From assembly GCA_038128225.1 (NCBI GenBank), contig JAYPJF010000001.1, positions 318,740 to 376,516 on the forward strand: DNA of 57,777 nucleotides, given 5' to 3'. The position numbers and the translations under genes were made by a program. Positions 4,266 through 15,232 of this stretch are shown piece by piece. The notes under the pieces are model-generated. The model searched no databases and was not told the origin of the DNA. It saw nothing but the letters and a program-made list of their open reading frames with translations. The DNA comes from a bacterium (lineage in GTDB: Bacteria; Patescibacteriota; Minisyncoccia; Phycocordibacterales; UBA2100). Numbering within the stretch: the first letter of the stretch is position 1; each line of letters starts with the position of its first letter.

Positions 4266-5945
4266 TCTTTTGTTCCGTCCAAAAAACACAAAAAAGAAAT
4301 CGAAGTGTCTTTAGACACTTCTCATCTTAGCTAAGAGTTTGATCCTAGCTCAGGGTGAACGCTGGCGGTATGGATAAGGCATGCAAGTCGAGTGGGTTTA
4401 GACCCACGGCAGACGAGGTAGGAACACGTAGGAACGTACCCAGAAGTCGGGCATAATCGGTCGAAAGGCCGGATAATTCCCGATGGTCCCGCAAGGGTAA
4501 AGATTTATCGCTTCTGGAGCGGCCTGCGTAGCATCAGCTAGTTGGTAGGGTAATGGCCTACCAAGGCAATGACGCTTAGGGGAGCTGAGAGGCTGACCCC
4601 CACCGATGGAACTGAGATACGGTCCTTACTCCTACGGGAGGCCGCAGTCGAGAATCTTCCGCAATGGACGAAAGTCTGACGGAGCGATACCGCGTGATGG
4701 ATGAAGTGCTTCGGTACGTAAACATCTTTTATAGAGGAGGAAGTCATTGACGTTACTCTATGAATAAGGGGCTCCTAACTCTGTGCCAGCAGGAGCGGTA
4801 ATACAGAGGCCCCAAGCGTTACCCGGAATTACTGGGCGTAAAGGGTGTGTCGGCGGTCATATTAGTCGCTTGTTAAAGCCCGGGGCTTAACTCCGGAATC
4901 GCGGGCGAAACGGTATGACTCGAGGGCGCGAGAGGTGAATGGAACTCATGGTGTAGGGGTGAAATCCGTTGATATCATGGGGAACACCAAATGCGAAGGC
5001 AATTCACTGGCGCGTTTCTGACGCTCAAACACGAAAGCGTGGGTAGCGAACGGGATTAGATACCCCGGTAGTCCACGCCCTAAACAATCCTTGCTGGATT
5101 TGGGGAGTATCGACCCTCTCCGAGTCGAAGCTAACGCGTTAAGCAAGGCGCCTGGGTAGTACGGTCGCAAGACTAAAACTCAAAGGAATAGACGGGGGCT
5201 CGCACAAGCGGTGGAGCGCGTGGCTTAATTCGTAGGTAAGCGAAGAACCTTACCAGGACTAGAAATCCAGCTGCAGACCGATGAAAGTCGGGGGCCTTCG
5301 AGGGTGCTGGACAGGTGATGCATGGCTGTCGTCAGTTCGTGGTTTGAATTGTTCCCTTCAGTGGGGTAACGAACGCAACCCCTGTTGCCTGTTACAAGAG
5401 TCAGGCGAGACTGCCCCCTCACGGGGGAGGAAGGTGGGGATGACGCCAAGTCAGCATGTCCCTCTGACGTCCTGGGCTGCACGCGCGCTACAATCGCCGT
5501 TACAAAGGGGCGCTAAGGCGAAAGCCGGAGCAAATCCCAAAAAGCGGCGCCAATTCGGATTGAGGTCTGCAACTCGACCTCATGAAGCCGGAATCGCTAG
5601 TAATCGTGGGTCAGCACACCACGGTGAATACGTTCTCGAGCCTTGTACTCACCGCCCGTCAACTCAAGGGAGCCGGGAAGACCGGAAGATCTCGTCTATC
5701 GAGGTCCAGGGTAAGCTCGGTAACAGGGAGTAAGTCGTAACAAGGCACGGGTAGCGGAAGCTGCTCGTGGATTCATTCCAAAACGGAAACGTCCTACCGC
5801 ATTGCGGCTAGTGACGTACCGGTCGGTTTGTGTAGCTCAATTGACTACACAAGGGTGTCGTAGTGACCATAAACGCTACGTGACGCATGGGAAAGATCAT
5901 GTGACAGTCGGGAAAGACCGAAAGTGTTCTGGACGGAACAAAAGA
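4266..5945 (+). other. 16S precursor processing stem (leader/trailer helix)
   Basis: TCTTTTGTTCCGTCCA (4266-4281) is the exact reverse complement of TGGACGGAACAAAAGA (5930-5945). The helix extends via GTGCA/TGCAC (4260-4264/5949-5953). Confidence 0.85.
4327..5782 (+). rRNA. rrs: 16S ribosomal RNA (Parcubacteria-like; ends approximate)
   Basis: Conserved blocks AGAGTTTGATCCTAGCTCAG (4334), ACTCCTACGGGAGG, GTGCCAGCAGGAGCGGTAA, ATTAGATACCCCGGTAGTCC, AAACTCAAAGGAAT, AAGTCGTAACAAGG and helix 45 with a GGAA loop. No intron-sized insertion is evident. Confidence 0.98.
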
Positions 5946-5954
5946 GTGTGCACG

Positions 5955-6071: not shown

Positions 6072-6257
6072 CTAATTGCGCGGACGCGTGTCGATCTTGT
6101 TTCGCACCTGGATATTCTTTTCACTCTTGCGCCGATTACCCCGGTTCTTCCCCCTCGACCTCTTCGGGGCTTGGTAGTTGCCCTTCGGGTCAAAGAGGTG
6201 TTGAAACTCCTGAGCGGGTTTGCGGCGGTGACCGTTAGGCTCTCGGCTATTCTTCAC
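6072..6257 (-). CDS. Small, highly basic hypothetical protein (61 aa)
   Basis: GTG start preceded by AAGGAG, its own strong terminator, and an Arg/Lys/Asn-rich product. Confidence 0.55.
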   Translation of the reverse strand: MKNSREPNGHRRKPAQEFQHLFDPKGNYQAPKRSRGKNRGNRRKSEKNIQVRNKIDTRPRN

Positions 6258-6324
6258 CCGGGTCTCCTTATCTGATCGTACGCACTCCTTTGCGTACTAG
6301 TTGGACAGCATAGCAACTTCGTGT

Positions 6325-6353
6325 TTGTGTGCAAGCTGCTTTTTTGTTAGTAT
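6325..6353 (+). promoter_or_regulatory. Promoter for the nested tRNA-Ile locus
   Basis: TTGTGT (6325-6330), 17 nt, then extended -10 TG-T-TAGTAT (6345-6353). The predicted start at ~6360-6361 is 1-2 nt before the outer tRNA 5' end. Confidence 0.65.
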
Positions 6354-6361
6354 GCCCCAAC

Positions 6362-6628
6362 GCGCGTGTAGCTCAGGTGGTTAGAGCACGTCACTGATAT
6401 CTGCGATATATGCACGGCGGTCGAAGAAAATAAGAGTAGTATCTTTTTTGTAACGTACGTAGTTTCCTGCGTGCGCGTGTAGCTCAGGTGGTTAGAGCAC
6501 GTCACTGATAATGACGAGGCCGTAGGTTCGAGTCCTACCACGCGCACGCAGGACGGTACCTACTCTTACTTTACTTCTCGCTTGTGCATATAATGACGAG
6601 GCCGTAGGTTCGAGTCCTACCACGCGCA
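6362..6628 (+). tRNA. trnI: Outer tRNA-Ile(GAT), interrupted at about position 37/38 by a 193-nt insert (exons 6362-6399 and 6593-6628)
   Basis: The 5' half (38 nt) and 3' half (36 nt) are each identical to the corresponding half of the intact copy at 6473-6546. Joining them gives a perfect cloverleaf. Confidence 0.8.
6473..6546 (+). tRNA. trnI: Inner, intact tRNA-Ile(GAT), no encoded CCA
   Basis: GCGCGTG/CACGCGC acceptor stem, GCTC/GAGC D-stem, CGTCA-CTGATAA-TGACG anticodon arm, GTAGG-TTCGAGT-CCTAC T-arm, discriminator A. Confidence 0.96.
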
Positions 6629-6630
6629 CA

Positions 6631-7341
6631 TCAATGCCTTTTCTGCGCGTAAATTGAGATGCTGCGGCGTTTGTGCGGTTTACCTGCGCGCACGTGGCCA
6701 AATGATTTTTGTACTTTGTGAATGATGTACTGTGGTTCGAGTTCTGCAATGAGTGTATCTTCGTCAAACACGAATTCTTGCACTCCAAACTCAGGATGCA
6801 TATACGAATGCGGCTCATCTCCCGGGTAGTCTCGAAGTAAGCGGCTCGCGTGCGAATCTTCATCAAGCAAGAATGTTTTTAAGAACAACCATCCGTCTGG
6901 GCGCAACACACGAATAATTTCTGAGCGCAGCCTCTCGCGCTCCTGTGTTTTGAGAACATGTGATGCCATCATGTCGAGCGCAAACATCTGCGAGTGATCG
7001 GGGAGTGGTATCGGTTCACGCATTGAATATACATCAAATGCGATAGGGAGATCGCCAATGCCTTTACGCGCTTGTTTAATTGCTTCAACCGATGTGTCAT
7101 AACCGAGCCCTCGAACTCCATAGTTTTTTGAAAGCCATATGAGATTGCGGCCATTGCCACAGCCAATATCTACCGCTTGCGCTAACGGATTAAGATACTT
7201 GCGCCCATACTCACGCTCCATCCAGCGGCAAAACTTTTGCAGGTCTTCGCTCGCGTCTCCAGAAAGATCGAGATACTCGGCGCGCGCGTATTCTTTATCC
7301 CAAAATTGTGTCCCGCGCTTCTTACGAGGCCTTCCTTGCAT
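6631..7341 (-). CDS. Class I SAM-dependent methyltransferase
   Basis: Motif I AVDIGCGNGRN, GYDTS and LRPDGWLFL. Start placed at MQGRP (7341); the upstream TTG/ATG alternatives are possible. Confidence 0.85.
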   Translation of the reverse strand: MQGRPRKKRGTQFWDKEYARAEYLDLSGDASEDLQKFCRWMEREYGRKYLNPLAQAVDIGCGNGRNLIWLSKNYGVRGLGYDTSVEAIKQARKGIGDLPIAFDVYSMREPIPLPDHSQMFALDMMASHVLKTQERERLRSEIIRVLRPDGWLFLKTFLLDEDSHASRLLRDYPGDEPHSYMHPEFGVQEFVFDEDTLIAELEPQYIIHKVQKSFGHVRAGKPHKRRSISIYAQKRH

Positions 7342-7400
7342 GACAGCCATTACAGCGCAAAAATCGTTGAAATGCAAAGGAAAAGTGGTTGTGGAAAAAG

Positions 7401-8693: not shown

Positions 8694-9989
8694 ATGAACT
8701 ATCGTGATGCCTTCGCACGTAAAAACATCACCGTTATGGGGCTTGGTGTTCTGGGACGCGGTGTAGGTGATGCGGAATTTCTCGCTGAATGTGGCGCCCA
8801 TGTGTTAGTGACTGATTTAAAGTCAACTGATGCACTGAAGGAATCGGTTCGCCGCCTTGCGAAGTATAAAAACGTTTCGTTTGTACTCGGAGAACATCGG
8901 GAGAAAGATTTTAAGAATGCAGACATGGTTTTGAAAGCGGCTGGAGTGCCGCTTGATTCTCCGTATATTGCAATTGCGCAAGCGCATCATACCCCTGTCG
9001 TTATGAGCAGCGCGCTTTTTACAATACTTACAAAAGCGTACGTCGTTGGAGTGACGGGCACGCGAGGAAAGTCGACGGTCACCCATATGATTCATCATGG
9101 GCTTGCACAAATGGGCAGACCTGCGTTTTTGGGCGGGAATGTTCGAGGCATCTCAACGTTGGCAATGCTTCCAGAGACAAAAAAAGGTGATTATGCGGTG
9201 CTTGAACTCGATTCGTGGCAACTTCAGGGATTCGGGGATCTAAAAATTAGTCCGCACCTTGCAATATTCACCAATTTTATGCCAGATCATCTAAACTACT
9301 ATTCGGACACCACATCTTATTTTAATGACAAAGCCAACATTTTTAGGTTTCAAAAAAGCGGGGGGCATTTACTCGCAAGCCAGACTGTTGTCGATCGTAT
9401 ACGGACACAGCGGCCACCAGTGTGGCCACGTGTTCCAGAGCCGATTCCGGACGAATGGCAGTTGAAGATTCGCGGTGCACATAATCGCGAAAATGCAGCG
9501 CTCGCTGCGGAGGCGCTGCGAGTGCTTGGGCTTAGTGAAGAGAGTGTTAGGGGGACGCTTGAGACATTCGCAGGTATTCCTGGGCGGCTCGAGTTTGTGC
9601 GCGAACTTAATGGTGTCTCGATCTATAATGATTCAAACGCAACAACACCTGATGCAACTATTGCAGGCCTCCGCGCGTTCCCTGAAGGGAGGATTATTCT
9701 TATTGCGGGGGGCGCTGACAAGAGTATTCCAGTACAAGGATTATGTTCCGAAATAATGACGCGCACTAAGCGGTTGATACTGGTTGAGGGAACAGGGACA
9801 CACCGGCTTTCAGAAGAATTCGCTGGGGCTCCGGTTCACAATTCAATTGAACGAGCTCTTGCTGATGCGCTGGGGCATGCAAAAAGCGGCGACACGATTC
9901 TTTTCAGCCCTGCTTTCGCGTCGTTTGGGATGTTTAAAAACGAATATGATCGAAGTGACCAGTTTACGGCAGAAGTTCGCGCGCTCTAA
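8694..9989 (+). CDS. murD: UDP-N-acetylmuramoyl-L-alanine--D-glutamate ligase
   Basis: VMGLGVLG, GVTGTRGKST, LGGN, ELDSWQL, DHLNYY, YNDSNATT, LIAGG.DK, LFSPAFASF..F.N..DR...F. Start corrected to the ATG at 8694 because the longer ORF runs through the tRNA. Confidence 0.95.
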   Translation: MNYRDAFARKNITVMGLGVLGRGVGDAEFLAECGAHVLVTDLKSTDALKESVRRLAKYKNVSFVLGEHREKDFKNADMVLKAAGVPLDSPYIAIAQAHHTPVVMSSALFTILTKAYVVGVTGTRGKSTVTHMIHHGLAQMGRPAFLGGNVRGISTLAMLPETKKGDYAVLELDSWQLQGFGDLKISPHLAIFTNFMPDHLNYYSDTTSYFNDKANIFRFQKSGGHLLASQTVVDRIRTQRPPVWPRVPEPIPDEWQLKIRGAHNRENAALAAEALRVLGLSEESVRGTLETFAGIPGRLEFVRELNGVSIYNDSNATTPDATIAGLRAFPEGRIILIAGGADKSIPVQGLCSEIMTRTKRLILVEGTGTHRLSEEFAGAPVHNSIERALADALGHAKSGDTILFSPAFASFGMFKNEYDRSDQFTAEVRAL

Positions 9990-10034
9990 CGAATACACGT
10001 GTTAATGTGCCAGCAAGCTGGTACAGTAGTGGGC

Positions 10035-11324
10035 ATGAATTACCGAATCCAAGGAGGTAAACCGCTTTCCGGTACCATTCAAACAAATACATCAAAAAAC
10101 GCTGCAGTAGCACTTTTGTGCGCATCGCTTCTTAATAAAGGGAAAACAATACTTGAGCGCATGCCCCGAATCGAGGAGGTGAATCGGTTAGTTGAAGTAC
10201 TTGAAAGCATCGGCGTTACTGTTACTCGTGAGGGGGGAACGATCACCATTAAGCCGCCTAAAACGCTCTCGCTTCAGACGATGGACAGGGAAGCGGCTGA
10301 AAAAACACGCTCGATTTCTTTGTTTGCGGGGGTGTTGAGTCACTGGGAAAAGGAATTCATGCTTCCTGTTGCCGGCGGGTGTCACTTGGGAGCGCGTTCA
10401 CTACAGGCGCATACTGATGCGCTCGGGGCGCTTGGGATAGAGATGAAAGGAACCGACGCGGGGTGGCATGTCCGTGCGTGGGACAAGCGCGCTGGAGAAA
10501 TAATCATGAGCGAAGCAAGTGATACTGGCGTTGAGAATGCACTGTTTGCCGCAGCGCTTTTACCCGGCACAACGACGATTCGTTTCGCGTCGTCAAATTA
10601 CATGGTGCAAGACGTGTGCGCGTTTCTTCAAAAACTCGGCGTTGCCGTTGAGGGCGCCGGTACAAGTACGCTTGCCGTGCACGGAGTTTCATCGATCGAT
10701 ACAGAAGTTACCTTCACTCCGAGCGAAGATCCAATCGAATCAATGTTTTTTGTCGCACTCGCTGCGACGACACGATCGCGCCTGACAATAACACAGTGCC
10801 CAATTGATTTTCTCGAACTAGAACTGCTTCATCTCAAAAAAATGGGACTCGCTGTTGGGCGAACAGAGGTGTATGTGCGTGATCGAGTGAGACTGGCAGA
10901 TCTCACCATTGAGCCGTCTGAATTGTTTGCTACACAAGAAAAAATCGCGCCGCTTCCGTATCCAGGCATCAATATAGATAATCTCCCTTTTTTCGTGCCG
11001 GTTGCAACACAAGCAAAAGGACGCACGCTTATTCACGACTGGGTGTATGAAAACCGCGCTATTTATTACACAGAAATAAACAAACTCGGCGCTGACGTTG
11101 TGCTTGCCGATCCTCACCGAGTATTTGTTACTGGACCAACACCACTTCACGCGGCGACGATAAAGGCGCCGCCGGCGCTTCGACCCGCAACCATGCTTTT
11201 AATCGGCATGCTTGCTGCACAAGGGGAGTCTGTTTTACAAGGCGTGTATCCGATAAATCGTGGCTATGAACAATTGCACGAACGATTAAACGCACTGGGA
11301 GCTCAGATTGAATCGTATGTCTAA
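10035..11324 (+). CDS. murA: UDP-N-acetylglucosamine 1-carboxyvinyltransferase
   Basis: SKNAA, GGCHLGAR (catalytic Cys retained), YPGINID, YENR, RGYE. Confidence 0.95.
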   Translation: MNYRIQGGKPLSGTIQTNTSKNAAVALLCASLLNKGKTILERMPRIEEVNRLVEVLESIGVTVTREGGTITIKPPKTLSLQTMDREAAEKTRSISLFAGVLSHWEKEFMLPVAGGCHLGARSLQAHTDALGALGIEMKGTDAGWHVRAWDKRAGEIIMSEASDTGVENALFAAALLPGTTTIRFASSNYMVQDVCAFLQKLGVAVEGAGTSTLAVHGVSSIDTEVTFTPSEDPIESMFFVALAATTRSRLTITQCPIDFLELELLHLKKMGLAVGRTEVYVRDRVRLADLTIEPSELFATQEKIAPLPYPGINIDNLPFFVPVATQAKGRTLIHDWVYENRAIYYTEINKLGADVVLADPHRVFVTGPTPLHAATIKAPPALRPATMLLIGMLAAQGESVLQGVYPINRGYEQLHERLNALGAQIESYV

Positions 11325-12226: not shown

Positions 12227-13433
12227 GCGAACGTACTCGTTTGCGCTTGGAAGTGGGCTCGCCGTCACCATACTTGGTCTTCTTGCCCCCACGCTCATGC
12301 CGCACCTTTTTGCGCTCGATGTTTCCTATGATCGTGGAGGAGTGGCGACAACCACCGAACGTGTGACTCCAACAGTTGAGCACCTGGCTACGCCGCAGGC
12401 GGTAAAGGCAGTGTATCTTTCACAATGTGGCGCGAGTTCCGAGACGTTGCGTACAAGCGTTTTGAAGCTTGCTGAGGAAACAGAAGTTAACGCGATCGTA
12501 CTTGATTTAAAAGACTACACGGGGACCGTGAGTTTTCCATCTGAGACCGCAGTGTCTGGTGGTAAGGGATGTACGATCTCTGATTTTCGCGCATTGGTAA
12601 AACATATGCACGAGCAGGGGATTTATGTGATCGGGCGCCTCACCGTATTTCAAGACCCGCTTTATACTAAAACATATCCTGAACGTGCTGTGCAGCGCAC
12701 AGGCGGAGGAGTGTGGCACGATTATAAGGGACTTGCGTTTGTTGATGTTGGAGCACGCCCATTTTGGGACTACATTGTGACCCTTGCAAAAGAAGCGCAC
12801 GCACTTGGGGTTGATGAGATAAACTTTGATTACATTCGATACCCTTCCGACGGGCCTATGAAAGAAGCAGTGTACACACACTCGCAAGGTGCACATGCTG
12901 ATAACGTAGAGCGCTTCTTCCAATATCTTTCTCAAGAGATACGCGTGTCACAAGGCGGGCATCAGCCGGTTACATCTGCGGATTTGTTTGGCATGACGAC
13001 GACGAACACCGACGATTTGAATATCGGGCAAGTACTCGAGCGCGCGCTTCCGTATTTCGACTATATTGCACCAATGGTGTATCCGTCTCATTATCCGAAA
13101 GGCTTTAATGGGTGGGATAATCCAAACCAGCACGTCTATGACATCATCGAATTTTCGATGACACGCGCGGTTACGCGAGCGCAAGCGACTACCACAAAAG
13201 TGTTTTCATTTGCGCATGAGCGTATTGGTACGTCAACGCCTGCACTCTACAAAAAACAGGTGTATAAACCGAATGTGTTACGGCCTTGGATCCAAGATTT
13301 TGACTACGGGGGAGAGTATGGAGCTAAAGAAGTGCGTGATCAAATTCAAGCCGCGTACGACTCAGGACTAAACTCGTGGCTTATCTGGTCTCCCTCGAAT
13401 CGCTATACGCGAGAGGCACTGCTTCCAAACTAG
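12210..13433 (+). CDS. Putative glycoside hydrolase (DUF4015-like TIM barrel) with N-terminal membrane anchor
   Basis: VNAIVLDLKD, GRLTVFQDP, GVDEINFDYIRYP, SADLFG, PMVYPSHY, RPWIQDF. Confidence 0.8.
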   Translation: MKKHTKRTYSFALGSGLAVTILGLLAPTLMPHLFALDVSYDRGGVATTTERVTPTVEHLATPQAVKAVYLSQCGASSETLRTSVLKLAEETEVNAIVLDLKDYTGTVSFPSETAVSGGKGCTISDFRALVKHMHEQGIYVIGRLTVFQDPLYTKTYPERAVQRTGGGVWHDYKGLAFVDVGARPFWDYIVTLAKEAHALGVDEINFDYIRYPSDGPMKEAVYTHSQGAHADNVERFFQYLSQEIRVSQGGHQPVTSADLFGMTTTNTDDLNIGQVLERALPYFDYIAPMVYPSHYPKGFNGWDNPNQHVYDIIEFSMTRAVTRAQATTTKVFSFAHERIGTSTPALYKKQVYKPNVLRPWIQDFDYGGEYGAKEVRDQIQAAYDSGLNSWLIWSPSNRYTREALLPN

Positions 13434-13453
13434 CTTCGCGTTATACTACACGC

Positions 13454-15232
13454 ATGACGTGGTCGTATGACCCAGAAAAAATAACGTATTTTGCTGCAAC
13501 GCATACACGTGGGCAGCATCGCGCGTTTGGAATTCGTGCGAAAGATCGTACGAAGCATATGTATGTCATCGGAAAAACGGGTATGGGTAAATCAACCATG
13601 CTCGAAAATCTAGCGATTCAAGATATCCAAAACGGCGAAGGGGTATGCTTTATCGATCCGCACGGGTCGACTGCAGAAAAACTCCTTGATTTTATACCGC
13701 AAGAGCGCATCAAAGACGTGGTTTATTTTGCCCCGTTTGATACAGAGTACCCAATCGGTTTTAACGTGATGGAAGACGTGGGTTATGACAATCGGCACCT
13801 TGTGGTCTCAGGGCTCATGGGCGTGTTTGAGCGGTTGTGGGCAGATGCTTGGAGCGCGCGCATGTCATACATTTTACAGAACACATTGTATGCACTTTTG
13901 GAGTATCCCAACGCTACATTACTTGACGTGAATGCGATGCTCACCAATAAAACATTTCGCGAAGACGTGGTGAATCATATTACCGATCCAGTGGTTGAAC
14001 AGTTTTGGAAAGGAGAATTCGCAAGCTACACCGACCGCTACACGCAAGAAGCAACTCCTGCTATCCAAAACAAGATAGGGCAGCTGACCAACAACCCGCT
14101 TATTAGAAATATCCTTGGGCAGACCGAATCCTCGATCAACATCCGGGAAATGATGGATGCGCGGAAGATTTTTATTGTTAACCTTTCAAAAGGACGAATG
14201 GGAGAGAGTAATTCTGCACTTCTCGGCGCAATGCTCGTGGTGAAGATCTACTTGTCTGCGATGAGTCGAGCAAGCGAGACCGCCCAGCGGCAAGCGCAAC
14301 TCCCACCATTTTATTTTTACGTTGACGAATTCCAATCGGTGGTAAACGAAGCGTTCGCGAACATTCTCTCAGAGTCTCGAAAGTACAAGCTCGCATTAAT
14401 TGTGGCAAACCAATACATCACGCAGATGGATGAAACGGTACGCGACGCTGTTTTCGGCAACGTCGGCACGTTCATTGCGTTTCGCGTAGGCCCAATTGAT
14501 GCAGAATTTATTGAGGTTATGTTTAAGCCGACGTTTGAAGCGCAGGATTTAGTAAACCTTGGGTTGGGCGCCACATATCTTACGCTCATGATCGACGGCG
14601 TGGGGTCACAGCCATTTTCTGCACAAACACTCCCGCCGATTGAATCTCCTGGGACCACGTATCGCGACGACATTATCGAAGCGTCTCGTTCTCGGTACGC
14701 AAAACCTCGCAAAACAATTGAGGAGCATGTTAATGCACGAGTGCGTAAATGGCTTACTGCTGAAAAAGATGCGCACAAAGTACGCAGTTCGGCTGGTCAA
14801 AAGAATGGAAAACCCGGTGGAAACGGTACTCAAGGTTTTCGACCATCGTTCAGTAAGCCAGAGGTGACGCATGAGGCGCCCAAGCCTCAACCGGTACAAG
14901 CGCGCCCGCCTGTCCAAGAGCGACAAGAACGAGAAGTACCAGTACAGAGAAGGGAAGAGACGCCCCGCGAAGCACCTCGATCACCGATAGAAACACTTCG
15001 TGCGAAACAAACAGATCGACACGTACAACAGCCGCAGAAACCCGATGTGCGCAACGCGCTCAAGGATGCTATCCTTGCCGCGCAAAGAAACAAATCGGAA
15101 CAGAGGAATAATACTGTGCAACCAGAAAAGACGGAGCCGCATTCTTCCCAAGAAAAAAAACACAGCCCACCGACCAGTGACGCTGATGAAATAGACCCAA
15201 AAGAGTTGCGAAAACTCTTGTATGAAGAGTAA
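13454..15232 (+). CDS. VirD4/TraD/TrwB-like (DUF87/HerA-related) P-loop ATPase with low-complexity C-terminus
   Basis: Walker A GKTGMGKS, FIDPHG, Walker B YVDEFQ, LSESRKY, ANQYITQ, FGNVGT. Confidence 0.85.
   Translation: MTWSYDPEKITYFAATHTRGQHRAFGIRAKDRTKHMYVIGKTGMGKSTMLENLAIQDIQNGEGVCFIDPHGSTAEKLLDFIPQERIKDVVYFAPFDTEYPIGFNVMEDVGYDNRHLVVSGLMGVFERLWADAWSARMSYILQNTLYALLEYPNATLLDVNAMLTNKTFREDVVNHITDPVVEQFWKGEFASYTDRYTQEATPAIQNKIGQLTNNPLIRNILGQTESSINIREMMDARKIFIVNLSKGRMGESNSALLGAMLVVKIYLSAMSRASETAQRQAQLPPFYFYVDEFQSVVNEAFANILSESRKYKLALIVANQYITQMDETVRDAVFGNVGTFIAFRVGPIDAEFIEVMFKPTFEAQDLVNLGLGATYLTLMIDGVGSQPFSAQTLPPIESPGTTYRDDIIEASRSRYAKPRKTIEEHVNARVRKWLTAEKDAHKVRSSAGQKNGKPGGNGTQGFRPSFSKPEVTHEAPKPQPVQARPPVQERQEREVPVQRREETPREAPRSPIETLRAKQTDRHVQQPQKPDVRNALKDAILAAQRNKSEQRNNTVQPEKTEPHSSQEKKHSPPTSDADEIDPKELRKLLYEE

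Follow-up and report, generated by a model that had tools for sequence, protein, structure and literature searches.

A complete tRNA-Ile gene nested in the anticodon loop of an interrupted, identical tRNA-Ile gene of a Patescibacteria-type bacterium

Several of the described ways in which a transfer RNA (tRNA) gene can be broken concern its anticodon loop. The bulge–helix–bulge (BHB) introns of archaea and eukaryotes, which are handled by EndA or TSEN together with RtcB or Trl1, are found in this loop, where position 37/38 is the canonical intron site, and the halves of the split, tri-split and permuted tRNAs of Nanoarchaeum, Caldivirga and Cyanidioschyzon are parted there as well. Bacterial tRNA genes can be interrupted in the anticodon loop by group I introns, as in cyanobacterial tRNA-Leu(UAA) and tRNA-fMet and in the tRNA-Ile of Azoarcus, and these are the only introns that a review of the tRNA gene types gives for bacteria (PMC4033280). 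The locus described here is built in another way. It lies in a 57,777-nt (57.8-kb) stretch of DNA from an ultra-small, Patescibacteria-type bacterium, and consists of a complete tRNA-Ile(GAT) gene enclosed, together with two mutually complementary arms called X and Y, within the anticodon loop of a second, identical tRNA-Ile. The whole 57,777-nt stretch is referred to below as the window, and all plain coordinates are positions in it.

The original prediction, made from the letters of the window, had claimed that this nest fits no known bacterial tRNA intron. The claim stands. In a full-text literature search, no bacterial tRNA-within-tRNA gene was found described, and the layout of the nest appears not to have been described before. 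We know of no bacterial tRNA gene broken by anything but a group I intron. A tRNA gene that contains itself also falls, to our knowledge, outside the disrupted kinds that have been described (intron-containing, split, tri-split and permuted).

Structure of the nest and its presence in metagenomes

The predicted order of the locus, with a 5′ half of tRNA-Ile, arm X, an uninterrupted tRNA-Ile, arm Y and a 3′ half, proved exact to the base (Table 1). The outer 5′ half is a perfect copy of the corresponding part of the inner gene over its 38 positions, and the 36-nt outer 3′ half is contained in a longer 40/40 match returned by the repeat finder, between 6590–6629 and 6508–6547, which also covers the ATA at 6590–6592 and the C at 6629. 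Exact repeats of 38 and 40 nt inside 270 nt cannot have arisen by chance. Deletion of 6400–6592 (193 nt) in silico restores, as had been claimed, a perfect tRNA-Ile: the product is 74 nt long, identical to the inner tRNA and called tRNA-Ile(GAT) by ARAGORN. The ATA present at both junctions does let the cut slide by up to 3 nt, since it allows four cut registers (0–3 nt) that all give one and the same joined product. The break in the outer tRNA-Ile is located between 34/35 and 37/38 according to the register chosen, and is thereby at or near the canonical intron site. When the native sequence is submitted to ARAGORN and Rfam, the inner copy alone is called, which is what had been expected of tRNA finders. 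Since programs of this kind see just the inner tRNA, such nests stay hidden in annotation; assemblies built with short k are, in addition, interrupted at them. We take the inner tRNA-Ile(GAT) as the working gene.

Table 1. Features of the nested tRNA-Ile locus and of its surroundings, with the loci that carry tandem arrays of truncated tRNAs (SAM, S-adenosylmethionine; ORF, open reading frame; rRNA, ribosomal RNA; positions in the window unless a locus is named)
Feature	Position	Strand	Remarks
Outer 5′ half of tRNA-Ile	6362–6399	+	Acceptor 5′ strand, D arm, anticodon-stem 5′ strand, loop through CTGATA; 38/38 identical to 6473–6510
Arm X, 73 nt	6400–6472	+	From the fold; single unbranched unitig 6370–6502 at 1x
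Inner uninterrupted tRNA-Ile(GAT)	6473–6546	+	ARAGORN; Rfam tRNA, 74.5 bits
Arm Y, 46 nt, right strand of the rod	6547–6592	+	X/Y cofold; unitig 6518–6619 at 1x
Outer 3′ half of tRNA-Ile	6593–6628	+	Position 38 to discriminator; within the 40/40 match 6590–6629
Promoter-like extended −10, TGnTAGTAT (TG-T-TAGTAT), after a T-run	6345–6353	+	Read from the sequence; ends 8 nt before 6362
Bacterial 16S rRNA	4327–5782		
Convergent SAM-methyltransferase ORF	6631–7377	−	Stop codon at 6631, next to the outer 3′ half
Tandem-array loci	L003 1558–2039; L011 7402–7710; L013 978–1102; L022 5003–5117		Plus other Cyclobacteriaceae/Bacteroidota loci

Near-identical sequence is present in five public metagenomes from different studies, and the same Logan unitig graph (k = 31) is obtained for four independent metagenomes (freshwater, estuary, wastewater and 'organism A'). 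The graph runs from upstream to 6391, then through a 38-nt node common to 6362–6399 and 6473–6510 at about twofold depth, through nodes 6370–6502 and 6481–6537 at single depth, a 40-nt node at about twofold depth and node 6518–6619 at single depth, and continues from 6600 onward. It has one Eulerian path, and the nested order alone uses each node at the observed depth. The unitigs through X and Y are unbranched at single depth, and both arms are thus single-copy per genome. A strain variant of the nest with the same junctions was also detected in a fifth run, X9. Of its two single-nucleotide polymorphisms (SNPs), 6428 A>G is shared with run X5, and 6553 A>G is confined to X9. The original prediction had left its case dependent on whether the junctions exist in reads alongside the inner copy: all four of them (half/X, X/tRNA, tRNA/Y and Y/half, or A/X, X/A, B/Y and Y/B as junction words) are found in unbranched single-depth unitigs in the four samples, next to repeat nodes at twofold depth. 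It is true that the repeats of 36–40 nt exceed short k-mers, and that the Logan contigs of the window organism itself end at the repeat, as an assembly artefact would have it. Against these junctions, the single path through the graph and their recurrence in the two-SNP strain variant, such an artefact is extremely unlikely, and can be considered as excluded for practical purposes.

Arms X and Y pair with each other over about 40 positions. Their cofold reaches −46.7 kcal/mol, versus −25.1 ± 2.7 kcal/mol with shuffled Y (about 8 standard deviations lower), and the alignment of X with the reverse complement of Y comprises 40 Watson–Crick pairs, 1 G·U, 1 A·C and 2 other mismatches. Arm X begins with 7 unpaired nt, followed by the left strand of the rod, by a bulge of about 22 nt that holds a degenerate promoter-like stretch (T-run/TGT), and by an 8-bp clamp at the inner tRNA. 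A small optional hairpin, ATATC-TGC-GATAT, can form at its start (6397–6409), and the pairing of arm Y with X extends to the very boundary of the outer 3′ half. In the predicted minimum free energy (MFE) fold of the whole unit (−104.9 kcal/mol, z = −3.5), all four arms of the outer cloverleaf (acceptor, D, anticodon and T) are intact, the rod stands on the outer anticodon stem and the inner cloverleaf is found at its tip. The predicted base of the rod shows a 13-nt bulge on its 5′ strand, made of six loop and seven insert bases, versus 1 nt on the 3′ strand, which is paired right to position 38. A BHB, with its two 3-nt bulges and the 4-bp helix between them, is not seen in this predicted fold. 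No group I intron (Intron_gpI), ribozyme or other match beyond tRNA was returned by Rfam for 6300–6700, even at E ≤ 10, and the last base of the insert in the four registers is A, T, A or T, never the G that closes a group I intron behind a 5′ exon ending in U.

The origin of the arms was also searched for. Neither X nor Y has another copy in the rest of the window or in the 66 fetched loci, and no significant match that could indicate their source was detected in these loci, in the rest of the window or in viral contigs. An 11-nt match of X/Y to the trailer of locus L047 was considered as a possible source and discarded, being at chance level (E = 4.6). A tandem duplication of the outer flanks was rejected for the window locus as well, the arms having just a 9-nt T-run/TGT motif in common with the upstream flank.

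The extended −10 promoter that had been predicted to point at the outer 5′ end is present as a motif at the expected place (Table 1), and a T-run with TGnTAnnnT is likewise observed 8–12 nt 5′ of un-nested tRNA-Ile genes in related metagenomic contigs (L035, L044, L052 and L055); a simple −35/−10 scan, on the other hand, does not call it. Since the motif precedes 6362 and recurs before un-nested tRNA-Ile genes, it probably drives the whole 267-nt unit, with a transcript starting at the outer 5′ half.

Related nests and an uninterrupted allele

One genome per prokaryotic species was scanned for two tRNA-Ile D-arm 20-mers lying 65–95 nt apart, a single pattern, so that the resulting census is a lower bound. 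Among the 28 loci retrieved, three show the half-X-full-Y-half order with complementary arms: L007 in a Paceibacteria metagenome-assembled genome (MAG), L008 in a Parcubacteria MAG, and L021 on a 1.52-Mb contig of an unclassified bacterium, whose nest is identical in a second NCBI assembly. The original prediction had kept open a one-off relic should no homologous nest be found; this option does not apply, at least three other genomes having one. The double D-arm pattern was not found in viral contigs, where it would have suggested phage carriage. A further set of 28 metagenomic loci, picked for the anticodon arm of the window, turned out to be almost all un-nested.

The arms of the four nests are unrelated in sequence to one another, and the details of the junctions are variable. 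The cut falls after U33 or G34 in L008, after A35 in L021 and between 34/35 and 37/38 in the window, and G34 is missing in L007. The junction overlap amounts to 3 nt in the window, 1 nt in L008 and 0 in L021, with a 1-nt loss in L007. The base of the rod forms a 13 × 1 internal loop in the window and a 4 × 3 one in L021, an additional 5′ hairpin being present in L007 and L008, and the left arm starts 7 nt into the insert in the window versus 16 nt in L007 and L008. The rods of the nests greatly exceed shuffled controls in strength. In 20 distinct un-nested tRNA-Ile genes, the pairing between a gene's own leader and trailer amounts to −16.0 kcal/mol versus −14.7 kcal/mol when they are cross-paired (p = 0.09). 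The possibility that a native leader–trailer helix is general to tRNA-Ile genes is unsupported by this comparison, and the rod thus goes with the nested state.

The tRNA-Ile sequence varies by 8–18 nt among the four hosts, and the inner copy matches the outer halves of its own host, with 0 differences in the window and in L021, 1 in L008 and 4 in L007: the cargo is thus local. Every one of the differences in L007 and L008 is a defect of the outer copy, the inner one being intact. The outer copy of L008 has an A·C mismatch in its anticodon stem; that of L007 has lost its wobble G34 and shows a T-loop change, a U·G pair and a G1·A72 mismatch. The window locus adds to this series two perfect shells, read-graph support in several samples and what looks like an uninterrupted allele in a closely related organism.

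This allele is provided by run X12, in which a 236-nt contig joins 6480–6546 (0 differences) straight to 6627–6795 (11 differences, about 93.5% identity). It appears from this contig that the tRNA-Ile of a close relative is uninterrupted and abuts the downstream flank known from the window. Four additional runs yielded no usable sequence for this allele. A bioreactor contig from run X38 shares 6460–6559 with four differences, that is the tRNA and 13 nt on each side, innermost clamp included, and carries neither the distal arms nor any half-copy; the core of the cassette therefore has an un-nested relative elsewhere.

The base pairs of the arms also bear on their age. RNA helices under long selection gather G·U pairs and avoid A·C. 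The pooled arms of the four nests contain 127 Watson–Crick pairs, 4 G·U, 6 A·C and 9 transversion mismatches, and such near-equal numbers of G·U and A·C are what a recent DNA inverted repeat in neutral decay would show. Because no G·U excess is seen, the arms look like young DNA repeats.

Partial copies of tRNA-Ile were encountered at other loci. In L008 and in L034 (about 9860–10270, the same locus as L036), the outer 3′ piece is followed by a repeat of the trailer found behind the inner tRNA, and the locus seems in both cases to have been copied into itself. L034 has an intact tRNA-Ile between two outer pieces. The 5′ piece (bases 1–11 and a decayed D arm) is located 180 nt upstream of the tRNA-Ile; the 3′ piece (exact bases 53–74) lies 200 nt downstream, and behind it the 65-nt trailer of the intact gene occurs a second time. 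In L034, the spacer on the 5′ side also contains a hairpin made of the 3′ strand of the anticodon arm and its complement (ATAATGACGA-tgcc-TCGTCATTA), and a similar one is present in L018 (Campbellbacteria, CP011215.1), a one-sided locus with a 27-nt 5′ copy alone. Short folded modules ending in a T-arm-like hairpin are observed 30–160 nt 3′ of tRNA-Ile in L047, L039 and L049/L032/L033/L043/L051; the module of L047 ends with an exact copy of the last 8 bases of the tRNA (CACGCGCA).

In Cyclobacteriaceae/Bacteroidota loci (Table 1), truncated tRNAs form tandem arrays of up to 6 units, spaced by about 90–95 nt, 5′ of an intact tRNA(CAT). Each unit consists of an exact 5′ half (1–38) and a T-arm-like piece (about 49–64). 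These arrays differ in kind from the nests, being un-nested and devoid of complementary arms. On a Patescibacteria contig (L006, 3240–3600), tRNA-Ile and tRNA-Val lie 17 nt apart with a D-arm 20-mer in common. Upstream of the pair, ARAGORN reports a 94-nt 'tRNA-???' to which it assigns an anticodon of four bases; this may be a further case of an interrupted tRNA.

Described systems and the origin of the nest

Each of the known systems resembles the nest in part. As with BHB introns, the insertion is in the anticodon loop, at 37/38 or directly beside it, with a helix that extends the stem, and as with the archaeal tRNA-Trp intron, which contains a C/D-box small RNA, the insert carries a second functional RNA and the outer cloverleaf can be folded. 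The nest is unlike BHB introns in its bacterial host, in the lack of a BHB, in its variable cut, in its complete cognate tRNA cargo and in the decay of the outer copy in related nests; nor are splicing enzymes found among the 46 ORFs of the window. Group I introns likewise interrupt bacterial tRNAs, a tRNA-Ile among them, in the anticodon loop. In contrast to their P3–P9 core of about 100 nt or more, the non-tRNA part of the nest measures 119 nt and forms one rod, with no core and no final G. As in split and permuted tRNAs, the halves are parted at the anticodon loop and have complementary flanks; unlike them, the halves stand in normal order in one transcript and enclose a complete copy. The intervening sequences (IVS) of 16S and 23S rRNA and the leader–trailer stems of rrn operons also have a long imperfect duplex at a loop or around a stable RNA, with no need for religation. 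They provide the closest analogy for the handling of the rod, which by this comparison is a plausible RNase III substrate. The nest differs from an IVS in that it interrupts a tRNA, the function of which is destroyed by an unrejoined cut, and in that the tip of the stem bears a complete replacement gene.

Resemblances exist at the DNA level as well. As with integrase insertion at tRNA genes, which often affects the anticodon loop, the incoming tRNA sequence preserves function and direct repeats of tRNA parts result; the nest has, in contrast, no integrase or cargo, a whole tRNA instead of just a 3′ part, duplication of both halves and complementary arms. Rickettsia palindromic elements, miniature inverted-repeat transposable elements (MITEs), mitochondrial double-hairpin elements and GC clusters are, like the insert, short protein-less hairpin DNA found in a gene whose function the cell nevertheless retains. 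Here, however, the arms are single-copy and unshared between hosts, no target-site duplication of fixed length is observed, and the gene carried is a copy of the target. The arms are inverted as the terminal inverted repeats of MITEs would be, yet the left one begins inside the insert, by 7 nt in the window and by 16 nt in L007 and L008.

The explanation we favour, and consider fairly probable, is that a self-replacing tRNA cassette with hairpin arms was recently inserted at the DNA level, that the inner gene works and that the outer halves are transcribed passengers. Three options had been put forward in the original prediction, and it is the third of them, a tRNA gene with its flanks inserted into its own kind, that fits best, given the X12 allele, the young look of the arms and the decay limited to the outer copy. 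The two-for-one precursor or intron finds no positive support, the nest having no BHB, group I core or ribozyme match and a variable cut point. The event would have been a gain and not a loss: a 193-bp segment, comprising a copy of the tRNA-Ile(GAT) gene and inverted-repeat arms, would have entered the anticodon loop of the resident tRNA-Ile between 34/35 and 37/38. tRNA-Ile(GAU) is essential and usually single-copy in such small genomes. If it is assumed to be single-copy here as well, an insertion would survive only with a working replacement, and the cargo would always be the cognate tRNA because the insertion must bring one.

The old promoter, at about 6345–6353, would then transcribe the 267-nt unit from end to end. 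The first 111 nt of the transcript (outer 5′ half and X) would serve as a leader and the last 82 nt (Y and outer 3′ half) as a trailer, and the rod would present the inner tRNA at its tip. This tRNA would be freed by RNase P at 6473 and by RNase Z or exonucleases after 6546, RNase III possibly opening the rod first. The outer halves would never be rejoined and would still be identical to the inner copy just through recency, as passengers bound to a decay that has, by the same token, already begun in L008 and L007. Their perfection needs no selection if the event is recent, since at most about 2.4 neutral changes are expected by arithmetic in the 74 outer nt at the divergence of about 6.5% seen in X12. 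The insertion might have proceeded by structure-directed illegitimate recombination, or a protein-less hairpin cassette might have been moved by an enzyme of the host or by one acting in trans. The variable cut, the 0–3 nt microhomology, the lineage-specific single-copy arms and the local cargo speak against a classical transposon or integrase.

Several points weigh against such an insertion. The outer halves are perfect in the window and in L021, and the outer cloverleaf is foldable, which is how a functional intron would look. All four nests lie in the anticodon loop, which a dead outer gene combined with selection fails to explain; a site- or structure-specific step is needed. The uninterrupted allele is represented by one X12 contig, at depth 2.7 and on the downstream side only. 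It is very unlikely that missing low-depth k-mers hid a nest in X12; an earlier nest could also have been lost there through recombination of the direct repeats with each other. A donor of arms X and Y was not found in the outer flanks, in the window or in the fetched loci. Both strain SNPs of the rod (6428 A>G and 6553 A>G) retain pairing as G·U, which weakly favours a constraint at the RNA level; this is weak counter-evidence because half of the transitions in a helix give G·U, so that the chance of such an outcome is about 0.25.

The perfect outer halves of the window and L021 are also the main argument for a genuine intron, in which one precursor would yield two tRNA-Ile: the inner tRNA would be taken out by RNase P and RNase Z, the arms would be cut at 6399/6400 and 6592/6593 by an endonuclease or through trimming of the opened rod, and a ligase of RtcB or Rnl type would join the halves. 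The position at or next to 37/38, the use of the anticodon loop again in four lineages, an MFE fold in which the outer tRNA keeps all four of its arms and its anticodon stem is continued by the stacked rod, and the two pairing-neutral SNPs all agree with it. Such an intron would nevertheless have to do without any BHB motif, group I core or ribozyme signature, with a junction geometry that is not conserved (13 × 1 in the window, 4 × 3 in L021, a 5′ hairpin in L007 and L008) and with rods showing no G·U enrichment. The outer copies of L007 and L008 are disabled, through the lost G34 and stem mismatches, next to intact inner copies; the close relative copes with an uninterrupted gene; the window ORFs include no RNA ligase or splicing endonuclease; only group I introns are given for bacterial tRNAs in the review (PMC4033280); and the spliced product would equal the inner tRNA, with no obvious benefit. 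Altogether, this splicing route is unlikely. The RNA runs searched contain neither the window organism nor the nest of L021, the tRNA words of relatives being the only matches to the window. Should the outer halves be rejoined, a new protein-dependent route of bacterial tRNA splicing would be at hand. It appears equally improbable that the nest is either a new kind of bacterial tRNA intron giving two tRNAs, or a protein-less selfish element homing to the anticodon loop of its own kind of gene; this selfish element would escape selection because it replaces what it breaks.

A shell and rod kept by selection or gene conversion in the absence of splicing would account for the perfect identity of the halves, for a rod lying about 8 standard deviations below its shuffles, at −46.7 kcal/mol, and for the pairing that both SNPs preserve. 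The architecture could then act as a scaffold for processing or stability of the inner tRNA, comparable to the leader–trailer stems of rRNA operons, or as a two-piece, tRNA-like decoy, for example against anticodon nucleases. We find this quite unlikely, because the nest is absent from a relative about 93% identical and from nearly all of the 28 loci with the same anticodon arm, un-nested genes need no leader–trailer helix, the outer copies of L007 and L008 are decaying, and the arms are not conserved between lineages. The scars of integrative elements, left as partial copies of attL/attR type by two integrase insertions or imprecise excisions, are a highly improbable origin. tRNA genes are classic attachment sites, with known crossover sites in the anticodon loop, and one-sided partial copies do occur elsewhere, such as the 27-nt one of L018. 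The supposed elements, however, would be merely 73 and 46 nt long, with no ORF, integrase or cargo; 5′ and 3′ halves are both duplicated and meet at one point, no recombinase is encoded in the 57.8-kb window, and remnants complementary over about 40 bp are inexplicable by independent events, which largely refutes this origin.

If the insertion of a self-replacing cassette is correct, bacteria with tiny genomes have a recurrent route by which DNA enters an essential tRNA gene at its anticodon loop, and tolerate it only through the replacement that the insert itself brings. This would imply an unrecognised mechanism of insertion or recombination, and would give a source for the many tRNA half-copies near Patescibacteria tRNA genes. 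With its perfect shells, several public samples and an apparently uninterrupted gene in a close relative, the window locus is a good test case.

Genomic surroundings

The window is an ordinary chromosomal stretch. The genes follow one another as SecD, SecF, 16S rRNA, the nest, a SAM-methyltransferase, a cold-shock-domain protein, tRNA-Leu, murD and a long glycan-synthesis region. No transposase, integrase, recombinase, reverse transcriptase, RNA ligase or splicing endonuclease domain was detected among the 46 ORFs of the 57.8 kb. The nearest homologues of the methyltransferase are 57–60% identical and do not preserve the synteny on the side of the tRNA; the nearest named ones carry the labels Patescibacteria, Parcubacteria or Kaiserbacteria.

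The 16S gene and the nest are separated by an ORF of 61 codons on the opposite strand (6072–6257, −), together with its hairpin. The encoded protein is very basic (MKNSREPNGHRRKPAQEF...), an AAGGAG precedes the ORF, and the strong terminator-like hairpin which follows it (6050–6025, −) has an 11-bp GC-rich stem and a T-run. A search among 5.8 billion proteins gave no homologue for this ORF, and Pfam no match. About 150 nt past the 3′ end of the 16S gene, at 5930–5950, lies the motif TGGACGGAACAAAAGAGTGTG, the core of which, GGACGGAACAAAAGA, recurs about 90 nt upstream of tRNA-Ile in many related contigs (L032, L033, L042, L043, L049–L051 and L047). The motif probably represents a conserved element of the spacer or of processing, and the spacer between this motif and the tRNA is about 320 nt longer in the window than in the relatives carrying GGACGGAACAAAAGA. 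Further downstream, among cell-wall and glycan genes, a 618-aa protein (13376–15232, +) shows a weak match to the DNA-binding domain of TrwB/type IV coupling proteins (E = 2e-08).

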